Positions 1-9,626 of a DNA stretch of 64,000 bases are shown here, piece after piece. The position numbers and the translations under genes are program-made. The DNA comes from a virus, in IMG/VR virus record IMGVR_UViG_3300047160_035999, positions 5,059-69,058 of that record; one strand, written 5' to 3'. Every line of letters begins with the position of its first letter. The first letter of the stretch is position 1. The notes under the pieces were generated by a model. The model was given only the letters and a program-made list of their open reading frames with translations, was not told where the DNA came from and did no database searches.

Positions 1-700
1 GATCCTCCCGCATCTTTCCGCCGGCGGCCTTGTAGGCCTCGGGGCCGACGAAGGTGACGAGCTGCGCGCCCTCGTTCGAATTTCCGACGATCGCGTCCTT
101 GACCTGCCAATGGGATGAAAGCCGCTTGCTCTTCTTCAGCTTCTCCAGCATGGCGTCTTGCTGGGCATGATCCCCCGCCAGGGTAAAGAGCCGCGCGATC
201 TCGTCGGCGTCACCTGGCGAGAACTGCCCTGTCTTCCAGACCTCGCGGACCTTCGGTGAGAGTTGGCCAAGCGCGAGATACTGGCGGACCTCCGGCAACG
301 GAAGGCCGTATCCCTTGGCGATGTCCTCGGCCGCTTTGCCGCAGGCCTTCAGCTCTGCGAAGGCTTCATAGATATCGACCGGATGCATATCTTCGCGGAT
401 GAAATTGGTGGTCAGGCTGATGTCGGCCGCTGCGGCCGCGTCGACCTCCTGAAGCACGCACTTGACCGGCGTCTCCTTATCGAATTCGCCGTCGCGTTGA
501 AGGATGTGGAGCGCGGCAAGCCGCTTCTGCCCATCGGTGACCAGATAACCGCTCGGGCCGTTCCGGCGCACCGTCAGCGGGACGAGCATGCCCTTGTTGC
601 GGATGCTGGCTAGGAGCGATTCATCTGGTACCAGGTCGGTTTTCCGGACGTTCGCCGGATCAACCTTCAGGTCCATCAACTTGGTCTCAACGATATGCAT
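1..700 (-). CDS. ParB/RepB/Spo0J family protein (3' end beyond the window)
   Basis: Manual translation from ATG 700 (RBS GAGGA): MHIVETKLMDLKVDPANVRK...LLASIRNKGMLVPLTVR...YLVTDGQKRLAAL...NFIREDMHPVDIYEAF, then an HTH-like segment; ParB N-terminal motifs; absent from the ORF track because it is truncated. Confidence 0.85.
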   Translation of the reverse strand, partial: MHIVETKLMDLKVDPANVRKTDLVPDESLLASIRNKGMLVPLTVRRNGPSGYLVTDGQKRLAALHILQRDGEFDKETPVKCVLQEVDAAAAADISLTTNFIREDMHPVDIYEAFAELKACGKAAEDIAKGYGLPLPEVRQYLALGQLSPKVREVWKTGQFSPGDADEIARLFTLAGDHAQQDAMLEKLKKSKRLSSHWQVKDAIVGNSNEGAQLVTFVGPEAYKAAGGKMRED

Positions 701-722
701 GGTGGTCCTCAATGTGTTGTGG

Positions 723-2612
723 TCACTTTCGACGCGGAACTTTTTTCGATTTGGCCGCCTTCGCCGGTTTCGTGGCTTTGGCTTTGCGATTGGATGAGAA
801 GTCCAGGCGCAGCTGTCCGGCCATCCGGGCAACGGTCGCGTAAGTGCGTCCCGGCAAGCGCTCGGGCACGTCGACGAGTTTCAGGCCGTCCTTGTGCGCC
901 TTCTTCAGGATCGCCTTTTCGGCATCCGTCCATGGCAGCCGCTGCTTCAGCCCCAGCTGACTTGCCATCGACAGGATCGCGCCCCTCGACCGATCCAACT
1001 CCTGCATGATCTCGGCGACCGATTTGTTCGCCGTGTACATCTCGGTCAGCTTCTTGAGATCGTCATCGGTCCACGGCTTAGCGCTGTTCCGGCTGATCCC
1101 GTGCTTCTGCGCAAATTTTGTGACCCCGGTGATGCCACGCTCGAAGCCGGCATCCTTCAAATCCTGGATGATCTCGCGGGTCGTTTTGCCTGCCTCGAGG
1201 CCGGCGAGCGCGATCTTGCTCTCCTCGCCGGACCAGTAGTTGACGCGATCACGTGTGATTCCCAGCGCGATCGCGCGCATCTGCACGGCGACGCGGCCGC
1301 GGCTGAAGCCGTTCTCGGCAAGCTTGCCGACGATCTCGATGATCTTCAATTCCTTGGTGTAACCGTCCTTGACGATCTCGTCCTCTTCCGCCTGCCATCC
1401 AAGATTCGCCTTGTGGCTGATGAGACCGAGCGCGTGCGCGCGCGTGGAAATGCCGCTGGTCGAGACCTGCAGGCCGGCGTCGGCGAGCAGCTGTCCGATT
1501 TCCGCAAGCGGCGTCGCAGCAGCGTATCCGTCGCGGATGATCTTGTCGTGTTCCTGAGCCCAGTCGATGCCGCGCCTGCCGGCCTTTCGAACATAGACGG
1601 TCATCGGCTGCGGCGCCGCGGCCTCGACCGCTTCGACCTGGCTGAGGAGCGCCAGCGCCTGCGCGGCGCCGAGCACCGGGGGCGCCTCAATCTTCGGAGC
1701 CTCGCCCTTGTGCCGCGTCTCGACGCCGCCGGCCTTGAACCGGGCCCGGCCCGGCAGGTTGAAAGCCGGGCCAATGCCCACGAACTCGCCATCCGATAGT
1801 GTCCGCAGCGCCCGGCTGTGCCCCGCCGTGAAACCCAGCACGTCGCCGGCGCGCTCTAGGTCTCGATCGAAGATCGTACGGCCAACAATGACATTGGTCG
1901 GCTTGGCGATGACCGGAGTCGACGTCTCGGCGATGCGGCTGGTAGCGATGACGCCGGCGATGCCACGCTTGCGGCCGCGCGTCATGACATCGGCGAGCGC
2001 GCGGATAGTCCTCTTGCGGGTCTCGACCTCGACGTCGCCGGGGTCGTACCGAGGCACAAGGGATTGAGCCTCGTCGATCAGCAGAAGCAAGGGGTACCAA
2101 AGCTCGTTCGGAGCCTCGACCAGCGCCGTCACCAGCTCGGCAACGATGACAAACCGATCTTCGCTGGTTGCGTCAGACAGATCGAGCACTGCGCTGTAAC
2201 GATTCTGGCGGAGATGGCGGCCAAAGGCGGCGCCACCAATACGTTGCACGTCCGAGGCCTTCACTACAGCAACATCGAACTTCTCGGCGATCGTGGAAAA
2301 CTCGCCGTCAACGTCGATGAGCAGCTGCTGCACCTTGCCCCAAGACTGCTCGAACAGCCGGCGCAGCAACATTGACTTGCCGGCGCCGCTGTTGCCCTGG
2401 ATCAGCAACCGACCGTCAACCAATCGATCGAGGCTAACGCCGACCTGATCGCCGTTCGAAGCATGGCCGAGAAGGATGTCGCCCTCGCGAATAACCCTCA
2501 GTACCGGCTTGACCGGTGCCGGCGGCGGTACGGGCGCGCCAGATCCTCCGGGCCCGAAGCCACGCCCCTCACGAGCGAGAGCCTGCGAGATTCTGGTGTC
2601 GATTGCGCTCAT
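723..2612 (-). CDS. HerA/DUF87-like ATPase with five C-terminal Myb/GcrA-like HTH repeats
   Basis: Walker A GNSGAGKS, Walker B LLLIDEAQ, RGRKRG motif; repeats of pattern W-x-x-E-x-x-x-(I/L)...EI. Confidence 0.8.
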   Translation of the reverse strand: MSAIDTRISQALAREGRGFGPGGSGAPVPPPAPVKPVLRVIREGDILLGHASNGDQVGVSLDRLVDGRLLIQGNSGAGKSMLLRRLFEQSWGKVQQLLIDVDGEFSTIAEKFDVAVVKASDVQRIGGAAFGRHLRQNRYSAVLDLSDATSEDRFVIVAELVTALVEAPNELWYPLLLLIDEAQSLVPRYDPGDVEVETRKRTIRALADVMTRGRKRGIAGVIATSRIAETSTPVIAKPTNVIVGRTIFDRDLERAGDVLGFTAGHSRALRTLSDGEFVGIGPAFNLPGRARFKAGGVETRHKGEAPKIEAPPVLGAAQALALLSQVEAVEAAAPQPMTVYVRKAGRRGIDWAQEHDKIIRDGYAAATPLAEIGQLLADAGLQVSTSGISTRAHALGLISHKANLGWQAEEDEIVKDGYTKELKIIEIVGKLAENGFSRGRVAVQMRAIALGITRDRVNYWSGEESKIALAGLEAGKTTREIIQDLKDAGFERGITGVTKFAQKHGISRNSAKPWTDDDLKKLTEMYTANKSVAEIMQELDRSRGAILSMASQLGLKQRLPWTDAEKAILKKAHKDGLKLVDVPERLPGRTYATVARMAGQLRLDFSSNRKAKATKPAKAAKSKKVPRRK

Positions 2613-2887
2613 CGCGGATACCCCGCTCGTTGGCTGAGGTCAGTAACGCGCCCCTCGATCGCCTGGATGCACGCGCTCTTGGCGCCCTCGAGCGTCGTCA
2701 CCGGTCCGATGCGCCGGATCAAAGTGGTGTCGGTCGGGTCCATCGCGTGGGCGTAGAAAGGCCCGACGTCGTAGAACCAGAGAACGCCGGCGAGCCGTTC
2801 GCCCTTGTCGTTGGTCAACGAGAGCGATCCCTTGAACATCGGACGCCCTTCCTCATCGTTCTCGATCGGGTCGTCGCGCCAGTTCAT
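2609..2887 (-). CDS. Hypothetical phage protein
   Basis: 92 aa ORF, ATGA-coupled to its neighbours. Confidence 0.7.
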   Translation of the reverse strand: MNWRDDPIENDEEGRPMFKGSLSLTNDKGERLAGVLWFYDVGPFYAHAMDPTDTTLIRRIGPVTTLEGAKSACIQAIEGRVTDLSQRAGYPR

Positions 2888-3090
2888 AGCTCACCTCTTA
2901 AGAGCCGATTGGCGCGTCCAACAGCGGCTGCAGCCCTTTCGACAACATGGATCGCTGTGAAGAATTCGCCGCTAACCCTTCCGGAATTCCGGGCGTTGAG
3001 CCAGCGAAGCACCTGAGCCGCGGTGACGGTCTCAAGGTCCTCCGCAACCTCGAACTCGATCTGGGCGATAGCCATTTTGTCGCCGCTCAT
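2884..3090 (-). CDS. Hypothetical phage protein
   Basis: ATG 3090 overlaps the TGA of the upstream ATPase. Confidence 0.6.
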   Translation of the reverse strand: MSGDKMAIAQIEFEVAEDLETVTAAQVLRWLNARNSGRVSGEFFTAIHVVERAAAAVGRANRLLRGEL

Positions 3091-4814
3091 GCCCGCACCC
3101 ACGATTGCAGCTCGACCATGCCACCGCTGGGATAGTCGATGATCTCGAGCGTTCGCATCGAACCGATCACGTTTTTCAGGTGGCCTGCTTTCGGGTCCCA
3201 GCCGACCGCCTCCGCGACCTCGGCCCGCGACATGGCATTGCGCGTCAGAAGGACCTCGAAAATCTGCTTCTGCGGATTCGAGAGGACATCGCGCAGCCCG
3301 TCGACCAGCGTCAGCGACATGTCGGGCTCAGGCGCTGCGGCCTCGCCGGCGTCGGTCAGTGCGACATGACCGCCGGCCGAAAGCGTCAGTCCGGCCGAGT
3401 TCAAGGAGCCTATGACGTTCTTGAGATGGCCAGCCGTCACCTTCCATCCGGCGATCGCCGCCACCTGCGCGCGCGATGGGTTGTCGAAGCCCATCGCCCG
3501 CCACCAGGCGAGCGCCCGCAGCAGCGTCCGCTGCGGGTTGGAAAGAGAGGCATCACCGCTCGCCACCGGTGATGGTTTGCGCGCGGCTGGAACTGCCGCG
3601 CGCGGCGTCGGGGCTGCGGTGCTTCTGGTCACCGCTGGCGAGCCCGTTTCAGGGTTGATGAATTCGAGGTTGGTCGCTCCAACGTTGGTTTGCAGGGATT
3701 CGGTGAACGTCCTGACCGTCGTTTGCACTTGGTGCTTCAGGGCCGCATACGATTCCTTGCCCTGCTTGGCCGCTTCCGCAAAGCCCAGTTGGTAACCGCG
3801 CGCTTCGGCCTCGAGCAAACCTTCTCGCGATGGCGCTGACGGCGCCGCTGACCGCGCACCATCCCGCTCCTGCTCCAGCTTCCGCTTGTCGCGCTCGAGC
3901 ACCGAGATCCGCTCGCGGAGCTTCTTCGGGTCATCGGCCTCGGCCTTCGCGACCTCCTCGCCGATCAGCGCGCGCAGCGCGGCCTCGTCGACCGGCGCCA
4001 TCTTGACGTCGAACTGGTCATCGTCCCCCGTCGGCGTCGCGGTGTTGTCGAAGGTCCGGAACTTCGGGAACTTGGTCCGCTGAAAGAGCTGCGTGCGGCC
4101 GGAGCATAGCCAGCCCTCGCCGGTCTGCAGCGACGCTAGCGTTCCGGAGACCTCTGCGGCCGCCGACTTGTTCACGCCCTTCAGCCATTTGATGACCGGC
4201 TCCTGGTCGGCATCGAACATCAGCTGATGCGCAATCAGGGTCTGGCAGCTGCCGAGCACGGCATTGTGCAGCGCCTGGACGCGCTGCGTAGCGACGATGA
4301 GCCTGATACCCTTGGTGCGGCTGCCGGTGCCGAGCTTCTTCGCCCAATGGATGGACATGTTCTCGCCGCCGAAGCCTACCCGCTCTTTCGGCGCGATCTC
4401 GTGCGCCTCCTCGATGACCAGATACACGACGCCGCGGATGTTCTTCCAAAGCGACTGGGCGAAATCGACGAAGAACCGCTGGATGCCGCCGGCCTCGAAG
4501 TCGGCCATATCGATGATCGACAGCGGCAGCTTGCCGGTACCGACGAGCTGGCCGATCACCTTGCCGGCCGACGAGTGCAGCGGGACGTGGCCGCGCGGTC
4601 CGCCGAGAATCTTGAATGGCAGGCCCGCGCTCTTTCCGCTGGCGCTGGACGTGATGCCCCACCAGTCCGACTTGATTGTGTCGAGCACGCAGACGCGAAA
4701 GTTTTCGGCGACCTGCTCAACAATCAGCTTCTCGGTCGAGGTTTTACCGCTGCCGGTCATGCCGAGCACGGCAGTGTGAGAGGCGAGAATTTCGTCGGGG
4801 ATGGCGTGCTTCAT
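3087..4814 (-). CDS. HerA/DUF87-like ATPase with coiled coil and two C-terminal winged-helix-like repeats
   Basis: Start moved to MKHAIPD (4814, ATGA-coupled); Walker A GMTGSGKT, Walker B LVIEEAHE, ATQR; duplicated LSNPQ...SRA.VA...GW...AGHLKNVIGS unit. Confidence 0.8.
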   Translation of the reverse strand: MKHAIPDEILASHTAVLGMTGSGKTSTEKLIVEQVAENFRVCVLDTIKSDWWGITSSASGKSAGLPFKILGGPRGHVPLHSSAGKVIGQLVGTGKLPLSIIDMADFEAGGIQRFFVDFAQSLWKNIRGVVYLVIEEAHEIAPKERVGFGGENMSIHWAKKLGTGSRTKGIRLIVATQRVQALHNAVLGSCQTLIAHQLMFDADQEPVIKWLKGVNKSAAAEVSGTLASLQTGEGWLCSGRTQLFQRTKFPKFRTFDNTATPTGDDDQFDVKMAPVDEAALRALIGEEVAKAEADDPKKLRERISVLERDKRKLEQERDGARSAAPSAPSREGLLEAEARGYQLGFAEAAKQGKESYAALKHQVQTTVRTFTESLQTNVGATNLEFINPETGSPAVTRSTAAPTPRAAVPAARKPSPVASGDASLSNPQRTLLRALAWWRAMGFDNPSRAQVAAIAGWKVTAGHLKNVIGSLNSAGLTLSAGGHVALTDAGEAAAPEPDMSLTLVDGLRDVLSNPQKQIFEVLLTRNAMSRAEVAEAVGWDPKAGHLKNVIGSMRTLEIIDYPSGGMVELQSWVRA

Positions 4815-5089
4815 TGTGCAATACCCTCGAATCGGCAAGCGCGTTCCCACGCCTCGGCCTCGCTCAGAGCGCCGCGACCATTGATGCTGGGGTCTGATCG
4901 ATTGCCGATGTCGTACCTGACGCCGAAGCCGACAGGCCCGAACCATGCCCAACGCTCTCCTCCGTAGACGTCTTCGGTCTTGTCCAGTCCCATCGAAAGG
5001 AACGGCCAGATCCGGATGTCGAGGTTGAGCGACAATCGGCGACAATTTCGCCAATGCCAACCGGGCTCGGCAGGGCCAAAGGCATTCAT
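4811..5089 (-). CDS. Hypothetical phage protein
   Basis: 92 aa ORF coupled to the ATPase start. Confidence 0.55.
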   Translation of the reverse strand: MNAFGPAEPGWHWRNCRRLSLNLDIRIWPFLSMGLDKTEDVYGGERWAWFGPVGFGVRYDIGNRSDPSINGRGALSEAEAWERACRFEGIAQ

Positions 5090-5308
5090 CTATAATTTCC
5101 CGAATAAGGCCATCATACCGATGACCAGGAGGCACAGCGCCCCAACGGCGAGCATGAAGGCGCCGAAGCTGATGATCAGCATGATCGGCCAGCCGAGCAG
5201 CCAGCCAAATGTCCATGCGGACGTGAAATCGAAATGGGAGCCGACGAAGATCGCGTGCAATAGCGCGCCGATTCCGATGTATATGCCGAAGCCCATCAGC
5301 CGTGTCAT
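5090..5308 (-). CDS. Small membrane protein
   Basis: MTRLMGFGIYIGIGALLHAIF...; two hydrophobic segments; ATGA overlap at 5305-5308. Confidence 0.65.
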   Translation of the reverse strand: MTRLMGFGIYIGIGALLHAIFVGSHFDFTSAWTFGWLLGWPIMLIISFGAFMLAVGALCLLVIGMMALFGKL

Positions 5309-5562
5309 GCTGCCACCGGTGCTGGATAGTCGCGCGCGAGCTGGGTGAGCAATCGGGTGTCGTCGACATCGAGCTTCCGCGACGCGAGGATTTGCAGTGC
5401 GCCGCCGACGCGCGGATCGTCGAAGAGGATTTGAGGCTCGGGGCCGTTCAAGCCCCATACCCAGGCGAAGGTGCGAGGGCGGCCGGTCATTTCGAAGCAC
5501 TCCCGGCCGAGTTTAGATTTGTCGATGAGAGCGAGCGGCAGAACTCCTTGAAGTCCGGCCAT
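5305..5562 (-). CDS. Hypothetical phage protein
   Basis: ORF in the coupled leftward operon; start uncertain. Confidence 0.5.
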   Translation of the reverse strand: MAGLQGVLPLALIDKSKLGRECFEMTGRPRTFAWVWGLNGPEPQILFDDPRVGGALQILASRKLDVDDTRLLTQLARDYPAPVAA

Positions 5563-6323
5563 TGGTCGAGCTTCCCGAGAAGCCAACATTGCAGGAATTC
5601 GAGGCGCTCAAAATCGTCGTTGATCTTCTCGACGGCAAATCGAACGGCCGCTTCAAGCGCGGCAATCCGCCGCTCAGCCTGAAGGGCTCGCTCTGTCTGT
5701 TCGTCCTCTCCGTGGCGGGCTTCTGCAATTGCTGCGTCAGATGCTGCCGGAGTTTGAGACTTCGCCGGGCAGTGAAAATGATGGCATGGATCGTCCACGT
5801 GACGAGAGCAGCCGGGGCACCAAATCTGCGTTGCGGTCGCTGCCGAAGTGCGAAGAGCTGCGACCCGTCGGCGCTCGCCGGCAAGACACTTGCCTGACTT
5901 TCTGCAGGTATCCTCGCAAAGCTCCCAACCTTCGCAGGCTGATAATTCGCAGCGCCGCGTTGTCGATTGTTGGGCAGGCTCTATCGCTGCCGGTGAGCGC
6001 GGCTCTGTGTATGCTGGAGATACCGCCACGTTCGTTGCGTGCGCGTACATTTCGACATCGCGGGCGGCGCCTCTGGCGGCTTCCTCTGTGAGATAAATCG
6101 ACGCCTGCGGCCCGCTCTGTTTCATTGTCCATGTGACGAGCCATCCGACCGGCTGCGCTGTCGCGCTTTGGGCAGATGCTCGCGCCCAGGCAGTCATCGG
6201 CGCCCGGCATCCGCACGTCGCGCATCGGACGGCGGCTTCCTTGACGCTAGATCCTTCAGCGTAGAAGACGCCTTCAGAGACATTGTTGCCGCTACACAGG
6301 GGGCAGGGCGGAAGATCGGTCAT
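5487..6323 (-). CDS. Lar (restriction alleviation)-like Zn-ribbon domain protein
   Basis: N-terminal LPPCPLCSG...VRCATCGCRAP...W pattern; further Cys clusters downstream. Confidence 0.55.
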   Translation of the reverse strand: MTDLPPCPLCSGNNVSEGVFYAEGSSVKEAAVRCATCGCRAPMTAWARASAQSATAQPVGWLVTWTMKQSGPQASIYLTEEAARGAARDVEMYAHATNVAVSPAYTEPRSPAAIEPAQQSTTRRCELSACEGWELCEDTCRKSGKCLAGERRRVAALRTSAATATQIWCPGCSRHVDDPCHHFHCPAKSQTPAASDAAIAEARHGEDEQTERALQAERRIAALEAAVRFAVEKINDDFERLEFLQCWLLGKLDQWPDFKEFCRSLSSTNLNSAGSASK

Positions 6324-6643
6324 GCGTTCCCCGCTGGGTGCTGGACGGCCACGCGAGGGTGCTTCAGCCACTTCTTTCGAGCAACGAGCAGCTCCGCGAC
6401 GAAGTGCTTCGCGGACTTGCTCGATTGATACGCCAGCAGCTCGCTCAAGACATTGCCGAGGGCCGTGATGGTCTCACCGATGTTCACCGAAAAATCACCG
6501 GTCGGATTGCCATCTGGCGACAGCGCGGCTCGAATGCGGCACTCCATGCAGACGCAGCGCTGCGTCTTGGCATCAGCCTTCTGAGGCTGAGCCGCATCCG
6601 ATGCCTGCTGAAACACGTCGCCGATATCATTGCTCATGGCCAC
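6320..6643 (-). CDS. Hypothetical phage protein
   Basis: 107 aa ORF, ATGA-coupled. Confidence 0.55.
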   Translation of the reverse strand: MAMSNDIGDVFQQASDAAQPQKADAKTQRCVCMECRIRAALSPDGNPTGDFSVNIGETITALGNVLSELLAYQSSKSAKHFVAELLVARKKWLKHPRVAVQHPAGNA

Positions 6644-8735: not shown

Positions 8736-9626
8736 TCAGCGGAATTGGGCGCTAGTGGTGGGGAAGATGCGGACGCCGCGCAGCGGCACGGTGTCCTTGT
8801 GGATGCGCACATAGGCGCGGATGGCCTTCTCGATATCGGCGCGGCCGATGTGCGAGCGCAGCGCTTCGAGATCCACGTCAGCAAGGCTGGCAATCTCGAA
8901 GTCGAACGACTGCGCCAAGGTCGCCAGTCCGCCGCTGGTGGCGCGGGTACGCGCCATATCAGCCGGTTTCTCCTCGGCGGCACGCTGCGCCTGGCTGGCG
9001 GTCGCGGCGGCGTCGATTTCCTTCTGCCGGGCGGCGCGCGCCTCTGCTTCCTTGCGATCGGCTTCGGCCCTGGCAGCGGCGGCGGCCTCCTCGGCTTCCT
9101 TGCGCTTGGCAGCGTCAGCCTCGCGCTGCGCAGCCAGGCGCGCCTCCTCAGCCCTGCGCCGCTCCTCGTCGGCCGCGCGTTGGGCGGCAGCGGCCTCCTC
9201 CTGCCGCTTGCGCTCGTCCTTGCGAGCAATGCGGGCTTCTTCCTCGCGGCGCCTGCGCTCGTCCTCGGCCTTCTTGTCAAGATAGCGCTTGGCGCGCGCC
9301 TCGATCTGCGCCTGCACGTCCGAGCACCGCTTCTTCAGCGAGCTGAAATAGGAGTCTACGATACGACCGGCGTCCAGATATGGCGCCTTGGTGTCTTCGC
9401 GCCTGGCCTCCGCTCGCTTGATCTCGTTGAGCAGGCCCCGCACGGCCTCGCGTGCCGCGGAGATATCCTCCTCGTCCTCAAACACCGCCGGCAGTTCAGC
9501 TGCAGTGTTGAGCGCGGTCGAGACTGCCGTCTCGAGGTAATCGAAGTCCTTTGCGAGCTGATCGGCGGTGATCAGCGGCTCGCGGTTGTCGCCATCTGCG
9601 GCGACGGCTTTTGCCTGCGCGACCAT
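8736..9626 (-). CDS. Coiled-coil phage protein in the recombination module
   Basis: 296 aa with a long E/R/A-rich coiled coil, between yqaJ and recT. Confidence 0.7.
   Translation of the reverse strand: MVAQAKAVAADGDNREPLITADQLAKDFDYLETAVSTALNTAAELPAVFEDEEDISAAREAVRGLLNEIKRAEARREDTKAPYLDAGRIVDSYFSSLKKRCSDVQAQIEARAKRYLDKKAEDERRRREEEARIARKDERKRQEEAAAAQRAADEERRRAEEARLAAQREADAAKRKEAEEAAAAARAEADRKEAEARAARQKEIDAAATASQAQRAAEEKPADMARTRATSGGLATLAQSFDFEIASLADVDLEALRSHIGRADIEKAIRAYVRIHKDTVPLRGVRIFPTTSAQFR

Follow-up and report, generated by a model that had tools for sequence, protein, structure and literature searches.

HAS-less HerA-clade ATPase genes and a HerB-like gene at the integrase-proximal end of a soil prophage early operon

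The stretch of DNA analyzed here (the window) comprises 64,000 nucleotides, bases 5059-69058 of the 69,395-bp record IMGVR_UViG_3300047160_035999, which is classed as a provirus by IMG/VR and rated at 100% completeness by CheckV. Its G+C content is ~63-65% throughout, and the element is an integrating prophage of a soil alphaproteobacterium. Our subject is a group of three genes, encoding two HerA-clade ATPases (ATPase 1 and ATPase 2) and a ParB-like protein, at the far (integrase-proximal) end of the long minus-strand, leftward early operon. This operon starts with an S24 (cI-like) repressor gene and continues with YqaJ exonuclease and RecT genes, a gene for a Cys-rich protein, two small open reading frames (ORFs), ATPase 1, two more small ORFs, ATPase 2 and the ParB-like gene. 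All the minus-strand ORFs described in an original prediction, which was made from the letters of the window, were found by our ORF check of the window, and its genes, motifs and coordinates were confirmed. Starts and stops of consecutive genes in this region overlap or lie at most ~30 nt apart; a scan of the region for consensus promoters and terminators gave site counts no higher than in shuffled sequence, which cannot decide whether the genes have a promoter of their own. Beyond the ParB-like gene, the 5 kb fetched from the left of the window contain several small genes of unknown function, then an excisionase-like gene (HTH_17) and, at the record end, a tyrosine integrase gene; in lambdoid phages the equivalent gene position is termed the exo-xis region. 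The rightward operon encodes a full GcrA and a DnaB-N/AAA_25 helicase, so that replication is provided for elsewhere. A search of sequencing runs found no RNA run with the locus, and only soil metagenome DNA runs, with a word share of 0.10-0.26.

The main features are as follows, in window coordinates; HTH stands for helix-turn-helix and aa for amino acids.

3087..4814, minus strand: ATPase 1, 575 aa: HerA-clade core without a HAS barrel, then a coiled coil and two winged helices (by homology and model)
4017..4814, minus strand: RecA-like core of ATPase 1, aa 1-266 (by structure alignment to HerA)
3681..3986, minus strand: long helical (coiled-coil-like) linker of ATPase 1, aa 277-378 (helices 277-293, 296-322 and 330-378)
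3090..3548, minus strand: tandem winged helices of ATPase 1, aa 423-496 and 503-575, of MarR/DtxR type (predicted local distance difference test score, pLDDT, 83-96)
723..2612, minus strand: ATPase 2, 629 aa: short extension at the N-terminus, P-loop core of the HerA clade, HTH array at the C-terminus (by profiles and alignment)
1713..2477, minus strand: core of ATPase 2, ~aa 46-300 (Walker A GNSGAGKS, Walker B LIDEAQ, RGRKRG/TSR arginine-rich motifs)
783..1580, minus strand: array of ATPase 2, five to six Myb/SANT/GcrA-like HTH repeats, ~aa 345-610 (repeats kept in 36 homologues)
1..700, minus strand: HerB-like ParB-fold protein, the N-terminal 233 codons lying in the window and the gene continuing to its left

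The start of ATPase 1 at 4814 is correct: homologues begin at the same point, and third-position GC is 0.51 in the in-frame extension upstream versus 0.82 within the gene. Its Walker A, Walker B and TQR motifs are invariant in 34 homologues, and the Pfam DUF87 (HerA central domain) hits it with 30.8 bits against a cut-off of 23.2; the FtsK_SpoIIIE score of 13.8 bits is below the cut-off of 24. In an AlphaFold model built from a 34-sequence alignment (pLDDT 82), the core aligns with HerA of S. solfataricus (4d2i; Z 21.1, root-mean-square deviation (rmsd) 3.8, 236 residues), over HerA residues 116-477 only, and with HerA of a DUF4297 system (Z 20.6), followed by TdpA, VirB4 and DndH-C (Z 19-20), B204, a minimal packaging ATPase of a virus (Z 16.7 over 197 residues), TrwB (Z 15.0) and FtsK (2ius, Z 14.3); Foldseek gives E values of 1e-9 to 1e-10 to HerA. 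The HAS barrel is the effector-docking domain of HerA; because Walker A begins at residue 18, ATPase 1 has no room for such a barrel at its N-terminus. It likewise has no N-terminal extension and no membrane anchor, and neither ATPase sequence contains a hydrophobic segment. The linker differs in sequence and length among homologues and is followed by a disordered Pro/Ala-rich stretch (pLDDT <50 for aa 382-421). The two winged helices beyond it match the N-terminal winged HTH of Rio2, a DtxR-family repressor and MarR-family chains (Z 10-11.4).

ATPase 1 belongs to a large family. A word-indexed search found 893 homologous clusters; among the best 120 of these, 118 of the 119 non-self clusters have 46-73% identity to the query and cover 91% of it or more, and they come mostly from soil metagenomes, Bradyrhizobium and Xanthobacteraceae. 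In an exhaustive profile search, with clustering at 50% identity, the thresholds E <= 1e-30 and E <= 1e-10 gave 4,420 and 7,874 clusters, respectively, mostly of the same length (~570-620 aa). Plasmids of the actinobacterial Clavibacter and Mycolicibacterium and of Gemmatirosa, far outside the Alphaproteobacteria, also encode full-length relatives of ATPase 1 (27-29% identity, query coverage 97-98%); on Clavibacter sepedonicus pCSL1 (L140:6944-8809) the gene lies near genes for a cytosine methylase and an FtsK-domain protein.

In ATPase 2, Walker A, the DEAQ Walker B and RGRKRG are invariant in 36 homologues, DUF87 scores 27.6 bits (cut-off 23.2), and the core profile matches DUF4297-HerA and other HerA chains over aa 166-289. 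About 65 residues precede Walker A and the profile matches begin in the core; this protein too appears to lack the HAS barrel. In the C-terminal array, Pfam GcrA reaches 26.6 bits, just under its cut-off of 26.9 and in the last repeat only; Myb and HTH_38 match weakly, phrog_323 also matches, and BLASTP of ATPase 2 against the phage's own GcrA was not significant. Bearing on these GcrA-like repeats and on the phage's own GcrA, GANTC (CcrM) sites are under-represented in the whole provirus, with 125 observed versus 175 +/- 14.5 in third-order Markov simulations. The ATPase 2 family comprises 131 clusters at 90% identity, with members in Bradyrhizobium, Mesorhizobium, Devosiaceae and Parvibaculum. 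On sphingomonad plasmids its equivalent is split into two adjoining genes, for a DUF87 core of 401 aa and an HTH-array protein of 424 aa with Myb/GcrA-like repeats (L143:8953-11429, a Sphingomonas hankookensis plasmid, and also L141), so that motor and DNA reader can be separate polypeptides. The neighbors of these plasmid genes include ArdC-like, thermonuclease, DUF3768 and PAPS-reductase genes; a 565-aa 'ATP-binding protein' encoded beside them was considered as an ATPase 1 relative and is not one.

The original prediction had proposed two non-identical HerA-clade ATPases, each with its own DNA-binding array, and both points stand: the arrays are the two winged helices of ATPase 1 and the HTH repeats of ATPase 2. 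BLASTP aligns the two proteins at 24% identity over 94 aa, and hhalign of their family profiles gives a probability of 17% (E 0.0014); they are only remotely related and form two separate uncharacterised families. PADLOC matches both to HerA component models alone, over the core only, and NCBIfam HerA equivalogs give 28-34 bits for both against cut-offs of 800-970. Relatives are named only 'DUF87' or 'HerA domain-containing' in the source databases. Cultured-phage records held one distant relative of ATPase 1 and two of ATPase 2, megablast against the phage collection gave no match, and in neither family did we find a member that has been characterised.

ATPases of the HerA clade are known to act in partnership with nucleases or NADases. 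The phage ATPases share with HerA (of HerA-NurA, Sir2-HerA/Nezha and DUF4297-HerA) the RecA-like core with its Walker A, Walker B and arginine motifs (Z 18-21, rmsd 3.0-3.8, 217-236 residues), but they lack the HAS barrel, the helical-bundle insert and a nuclease or NADase partner, and they carry a C-terminal DNA-binding array in cis. Identity to the defence HerAs in the structural alignments is 14-24%. The absence of a NurA or Sir2 partner was correctly predicted, with the qualification that the YqaJ recombination exonuclease is encoded ~5 kb upstream in the same operon. Profiles for NurA, SIR2_2, Cap4/DUF4297 and ParA-type ATPases matched nowhere in the provirus, the DUF4297 search having no positive control; for the ParA-type profiles, AAA_31 and CbiA, positive controls were found in 14/14 genomes. 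The neighbors of the ATPases gave no Pfam or PADLOC hit.

Two other groups of motors invite comparison. With FtsK/SpoIIIE and Streptomyces TraB, the phage proteins share the plan of an FtsK-HerA superfamily ring ATPase (the ring here being assumed by analogy), a linker and winged-helix DNA readers. However, HerA is structurally nearer to the ATPase 1 core (Z 21, versus 14.3 for FtsK and 15.0 for TrwB), ATPase 1 lacks a membrane anchor and has two tandem MarR/DtxR-type winged helices rather than one gamma domain, and ATPase 2 has Myb/GcrA-like repeats instead of winged helices. We regard the resemblance between the winged-helix reader of ATPase 1 and the gamma domain of FtsK as an analogy of design and do not claim homology. 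The packaging ATPases B204 of STIV2 and P9 of PRD1 likewise have a minimal core without HAS, and PHROG 2666 'terminase large subunit' matches the core; but the phage here is a tailed phage with its own terminase, and its ATPase genes belong to the early operon, are longer by a factor of about three and encode DNA-binding arrays.

The third gene had been read as a ParB with an HTH, starting at 700. The fold and the start are right; a partition role is very unlikely, since by hhalign the protein is a homologue of HerB/YfjB. The full gene encodes 582 aa (record 4010-5758, minus strand; L001:4010-5758), with a ParB domain for binding cytidine triphosphate (CTP) that includes the Box II motif GxxRxxA, an HTH, and D3- and D4-like domains. 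Its first 200 residues are the CTP-binding and HTH unit of ParB/Spo0J/Noc (profile match to Spo0J 1vz0, E 2.5e-28; model Z 12.0 to Spo0J and 11.0 to KorB). The C-terminal 340 residues are well predicted (pLDDT of the model 88.7), although this half matches no solved structure (best Z ~4.7), and the HerB D4 structure entry cited in PMC13370423 was absent among the structure matches of the model, so that the HerB assignment of this half comes from hhalign alone. Against the sequence of F-plasmid HerB, taken from the F plasmid record, a 48-sequence profile of the phage family gives a probability of 99.96% (E 3.8e-39, 504 columns) covering HerB residues 34-634, D3 and D4 included; the D3 of the phage protein is shorter, and may fail the rule of at least 80% coverage per domain used in PMC13370423. 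Full-length matches in the AlphaFold DB are 630-745-aa 'ParB/Sulfiredoxin' proteins, and tblastn with the phage protein hits 2,843 plasmids, mostly conjugative, many of them enterobacterial records.

In the 48 sequences, G57 and R60 of Box II are invariant and A63 is kept in 45; R60 aligns with the Box II arginine of HerB (R94). Box III retains its Asn and Arg, and its glutamate, which in canonical ParB is the CTP-hydrolysis residue (Mg2+ coordination), is replaced by Thr98. Across the family this column holds T in 25, A in 8, E in 8 and L in 4 of the 48, Thr or Ala thus accounting for 33. The substitution may make for a slow or non-hydrolysing clamp.

HerB is the new name for YfjB of the F-plasmid leading region (PMC13370423, bioRxiv July 2026). 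It is induced directly after conjugative entry and is homodimeric; its domains are the CTP-binding domain of ParB, an HTH and the new D3 and D4, and its nucleoid foci depend on the Box II arginine, the Box III glutamate (E130), the HTH and D4. It occupies numerous sites on the host chromosome, with no parS motif, but not the F plasmid, and reprograms host transcription (PMC13370423). The phage protein resembles it in full-length homology, with the CTP-binding domain and its Box II arginine, the HTH and a helical D4-type C-terminal half, in lying in what would be the first-expressed region of a mobile element among anti-restriction-type genes, and in lacking ParA and parS. It differs in residing in a phage early operon rather than a conjugative leading region, in length (582 versus 652 aa), in having Thr where HerB has E130 (Thr or Ala in most phage relatives), and in often being preceded by a gene for a HerA-core ATPase, which F lacks. 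The phage homologues reported in PMC13370423 were three, all from cyanophages; our tblastn search of the phage collection agrees, near-full-length matches being Microcystis cyanophages, with partial ones in Synechococcus and Nostoc phages. The gene studied here adds a new branch, carried by phages, to a family whose description is only months old.

The original prediction treated the three genes as one coupled system, and had named beforehand a survey of their co-occurrence as a test that could refute it. Loci were gathered around each of the three genes, and tblastn served to score the two others. The ATPase 1-anchored set comprised 16 genome and 49 viral loci, and the 56 loci counted were close, non-redundant and flanked by 6 kb or more. 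Neither partner was found in 44 of these; eight had the HerB-like gene only, one had ATPase 2 only, and three had both, so that ATPase 2 is missing from >90% of ATPase 1 loci. Clustering of flanking ORFs from 61 ATPase 1 loci revealed no conserved neighbor, the commonest being an RNase_T-type exonuclease (14) and DUF1643 (8). In many Bradyrhizobium prophages the ATPase 1 gene directly follows genes for an RNase_T-family 3'-5' exonuclease and DUF1643, and a Dam-type methylase is often found farther upstream; the arrangement recurs without being universal (L002, L008, L010, L011, L034, L038, L044, L048 and others).

The ATPase 2-anchored set, from viral and metagenome scans, gave a different picture. 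Its 25 non-redundant loci include 24 with usable flanks, which had both partners in five cases, the HerB-like gene only in eight, an ATPase 1-like gene only in six, and neither in five. The HerB-like gene is thus found downstream of ATPase 2 in 13/24 lineages, at most 150 nt away in nine, and 11/24 have an ATPase 1-like gene (27-51% identity) at a distance of a few kb or less. On the ATPase 2 tree the neighbor state changes at least 12 times over 25 leaves, and at least three branches show HerB-like adjacency. Loci with ATPase 2 have the HerB-like gene more often (13/24) than those with ATPase 1 only (8/52), with a Fisher p of 8e-4 if relatedness is ignored. In L071 (11887-13626), L093, L094 and L074, an ATPase 1-like gene comes immediately after ATPase 2, where other lineages have the HerB-like gene; it belongs to a distinct subfamily (27-34% identity to ATPase 1) with the same core, coiled coil and two winged helices.

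For the HerB-like-anchored set we used a DNA pattern for the conserved C-terminal motif GWLPPELR, a sample biased to one subfamily. With at least 3 kb upstream available at 18 loci, ATPase 2 was upstream in seven and no ATPase in 11; at the six of these 11 that were profiled, the upstream genes were DUF5131, HNH, MT-A70 or RecT. The trio is therefore a mosaic of separable modules and not an obligate unit. ATPase 1 is autonomous, and ATPase 2 is seldom alone, standing preferentially but not obligatorily beside the HerB-like gene. The predicted three-part system falls with the 44/56 close loci in which ATPase 1 has neither partner and with its lack of a fixed neighbor; the trio is not conserved, but the adjacency of ATPase 2 and the HerB-like gene is recurrent.

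The other features of the operon near these genes are as follows.

2609..2887, minus strand: small ORF, 92 aa, whose stop overlaps the ATPase 2 start (third-position GC 0.83)
2884..3102, minus strand: small ORF, 72 aa, overlapping the ATPase 1 stop (third-position GC 0.64, weak coding statistics)
4811..5305, minus strand: two small coupled ORFs upstream of ATPase 1 (ATGA-type overlaps, no Pfam family)
4811-5089, minus strand: the nearer of these, 92 aa, with a weak coding signal (third-position GC 0.67)
5487..6371, minus strand: Cys-rich protein with a weakly Lar-like (restriction alleviation) N-terminus (Lar_restr_allev E 9.6e-4, 19.8 bits, below the cut-off of 28.6)

The ORF at 2884-3102 is doubtful as a gene, and neither it nor that at 2609-2887 has a detectable homologue in ~100 related loci. 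The ORF at 5090-5305 (minus strand), two genes upstream of ATPase 1, is small, strongly hydrophobic and translationally coupled, with a third-position GC of 0.81; its product is probably a small membrane protein. Further upstream, between YqaJ and RecT, window positions 8736-9626 (minus strand) encode a 296-aa highly charged, Ala/Glu/Arg-rich protein of no Pfam family, whose relatives occupy the same position in related prophages (ORF cluster 23; L003, L021).

We favor, at roughly even odds (a probability of about 0.5), the reading that the two ATPase genes and the HerB-like gene are three separable accessory genes rather than parts of one machine, and together make up a set for establishment and host takeover. 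By analogy the set looks equivalent to a plasmid leading region; plasmid relatives of both ATPases sit among methylase, PAPS-reductase, DUF3768, ArdC-like and nuclease genes, and the Cys-rich Lar-like neighbor, with its match below the cut-off, offers weak context for a theme of establishment and anti-restriction. Soon after early transcription begins, the HerB-like protein, a ParB-fold clamp that is presumably CTP-dependent, would load on the host chromosome without parS and would then, by homology to HerB, alter host transcription. Each ATPase would retain the ring-forming RecA-like core only, the HAS barrel and nuclease partner having been lost and a DNA reader of its own being present in cis. 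It would assemble into a ring tethered to DNA by that array and, like FtsK and TraB, would move along duplex DNA or remodel the proteins bound to it, at establishment or induction; with their own readers, the ATPases would need no partner for targeting. ATPase 1 would work alone, and ATPase 2 would be linked in function to the HerB-like clamp, for which it is a candidate loading, unloading or co-remodelling factor on host DNA.

Several points weigh against this reading. First, ring formation and translocation are proposed for these ATPases purely by analogy. Second, five of the 24 ATPase 2 lineages have neither partner nearby and F HerB works without such an ATPase, so that any coupling between ATPase 2 and the HerB-like protein is facultative at best. 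Third, the adjacency statistics are phylogenetically non-independent and drawn from collections found by motif. Fourth, the HerB-like protein has Thr98 in place of the Box III glutamate that F HerB needs for its foci, and a shorter D3, so that its clamp cycle may not match that of HerB. Finally, an RNase_T-type exonuclease lies at most three genes upstream of ATPase 1 in 14/61 loci, and there may be a loose nuclease association of ATPase 1 in some lineages.

A bolder proposal, which we think rather unlikely, is that ATPase 2 is the 'unidentified loading partner' of the HerB study. It would be a HAS-less ring motor anchored on host DNA by its HTH array, which loads, spreads or recycles parS-less HerB-like clamps lacking the hydrolytic glutamate; the two would form a two-component machine for nucleoid takeover, with ATPase 1 as an autonomous sibling.

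It is also unlikely that the ATPases are accessory motors of repair, recombination or replication, acting with the phage YqaJ/RecT or with RNase_T-type exonucleases by analogy with HerA-NurA resection, or with FtsK-assisted dimer resolution near int/xis. The ATPases do share an operon with YqaJ and RecT, their region is near xis and int, and RNase_T-family exonuclease and DUF1643 genes are found just upstream of ATPase 1 in 14/61 and 8/61 loci. But the exonuclease association is restricted to certain lineages and is never a fixed adjacency, resection motors do not feature sequence-reading HTH arrays, and the phage has its own DnaB-type helicase elsewhere.

A role in prophage defence or superinfection exclusion, with the HerA-core ATPases sensing or pumping out incoming foreign DNA as in Sir2-HerA or DUF4297-HerA, strikes us as quite improbable. 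Defence HerAs are among the nearest structural and profile neighbors of these proteins, and prophages often carry defence genes near int. Yet no Sir2, DUF4297/Cap4, NurA or other nuclease gene adjoins either ATPase gene, or does so consistently in ~90 related loci; the effector-docking HAS barrel is absent; the genes lie inside a repressor-controlled early operon with no promoter of their own detected above chance; and the NCBIfam antiphage HerA scores (28-34 bits) are far under the cut-offs of 800-850.

The first option of the original prediction was segregation or condensation without ParA, the ParB-like protein marking phage DNA and a HerA-type ATPase replacing ParA. The order of ATPase gene and ParB-fold gene mimics parA-parB and recurs within 150 nt in nine lineages, and the ParB N-terminal and HTH domains, shared with ParABS and KorB, are bona fide. 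Here, however, there is no ParA-type ATPase, no parS candidate and a non-canonical C-terminal half (D3 and D4), and the element is an integrating provirus with int and xis. The prediction had suggested looking left of the window for parA or an integrase gene, and it is the integrase gene that was found there, the provirus containing no ParA-type profile match. A parS/iteron search, covering repeats at the locus and 14-20-nt palindromes genome-wide, found only scattered, non-recurrent palindromes. F HerB has no parS and is not enriched on its own plasmid (PMC13370423), and HerB-like genes mostly stand without an ATPase (11/18 loci). The sequence of the protein thus points to a HerB homologue and not a partition protein; with a HerB-type protein, no ParA, no recurring palindrome and an integrating element, the partition idea loses its main support, and we consider it very unlikely.

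An obligate hetero-hexameric translocase of ATPase 1 and ATPase 2, or a role for both as dominant-negative decoys poisoning host HerA rings, is highly improbable: an ATPase 1-like gene does lie near ATPase 2 in 11/24 lineages, directly downstream in four, but each family occurs mostly without the other, the two cores are barely alignable, both proteins lack the domains that build HerA hexamer collars, the helical insert among what is missing, and identity to the defence HerAs is low. What survives of the hetero-hexamer option is action on DNA-bound proteins of the host, and the original interpretation as a whole is partly supported.

Returning to the reading of these genes as a separable establishment and host-takeover set, two large HerA-clade families have dropped both partner and HAS collar and carry their own DNA-reading arrays, and are thus new architectural variants of the clade. 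This suggests a common, unstudied class of DNA-targeted motors in the mobile elements of soil Alphaproteobacteria and of Actinobacteria. The recurrent adjacency of ATPase 2 and the HerB-like gene is a testable candidate for the handling of clamps on DNA without parS. HerB-like clamps are extended well beyond the three reported cyanophage cases, and the HerB link ties the early operons of temperate phages to the leading regions of plasmids as what would be equivalent 'establishment' gene sets.

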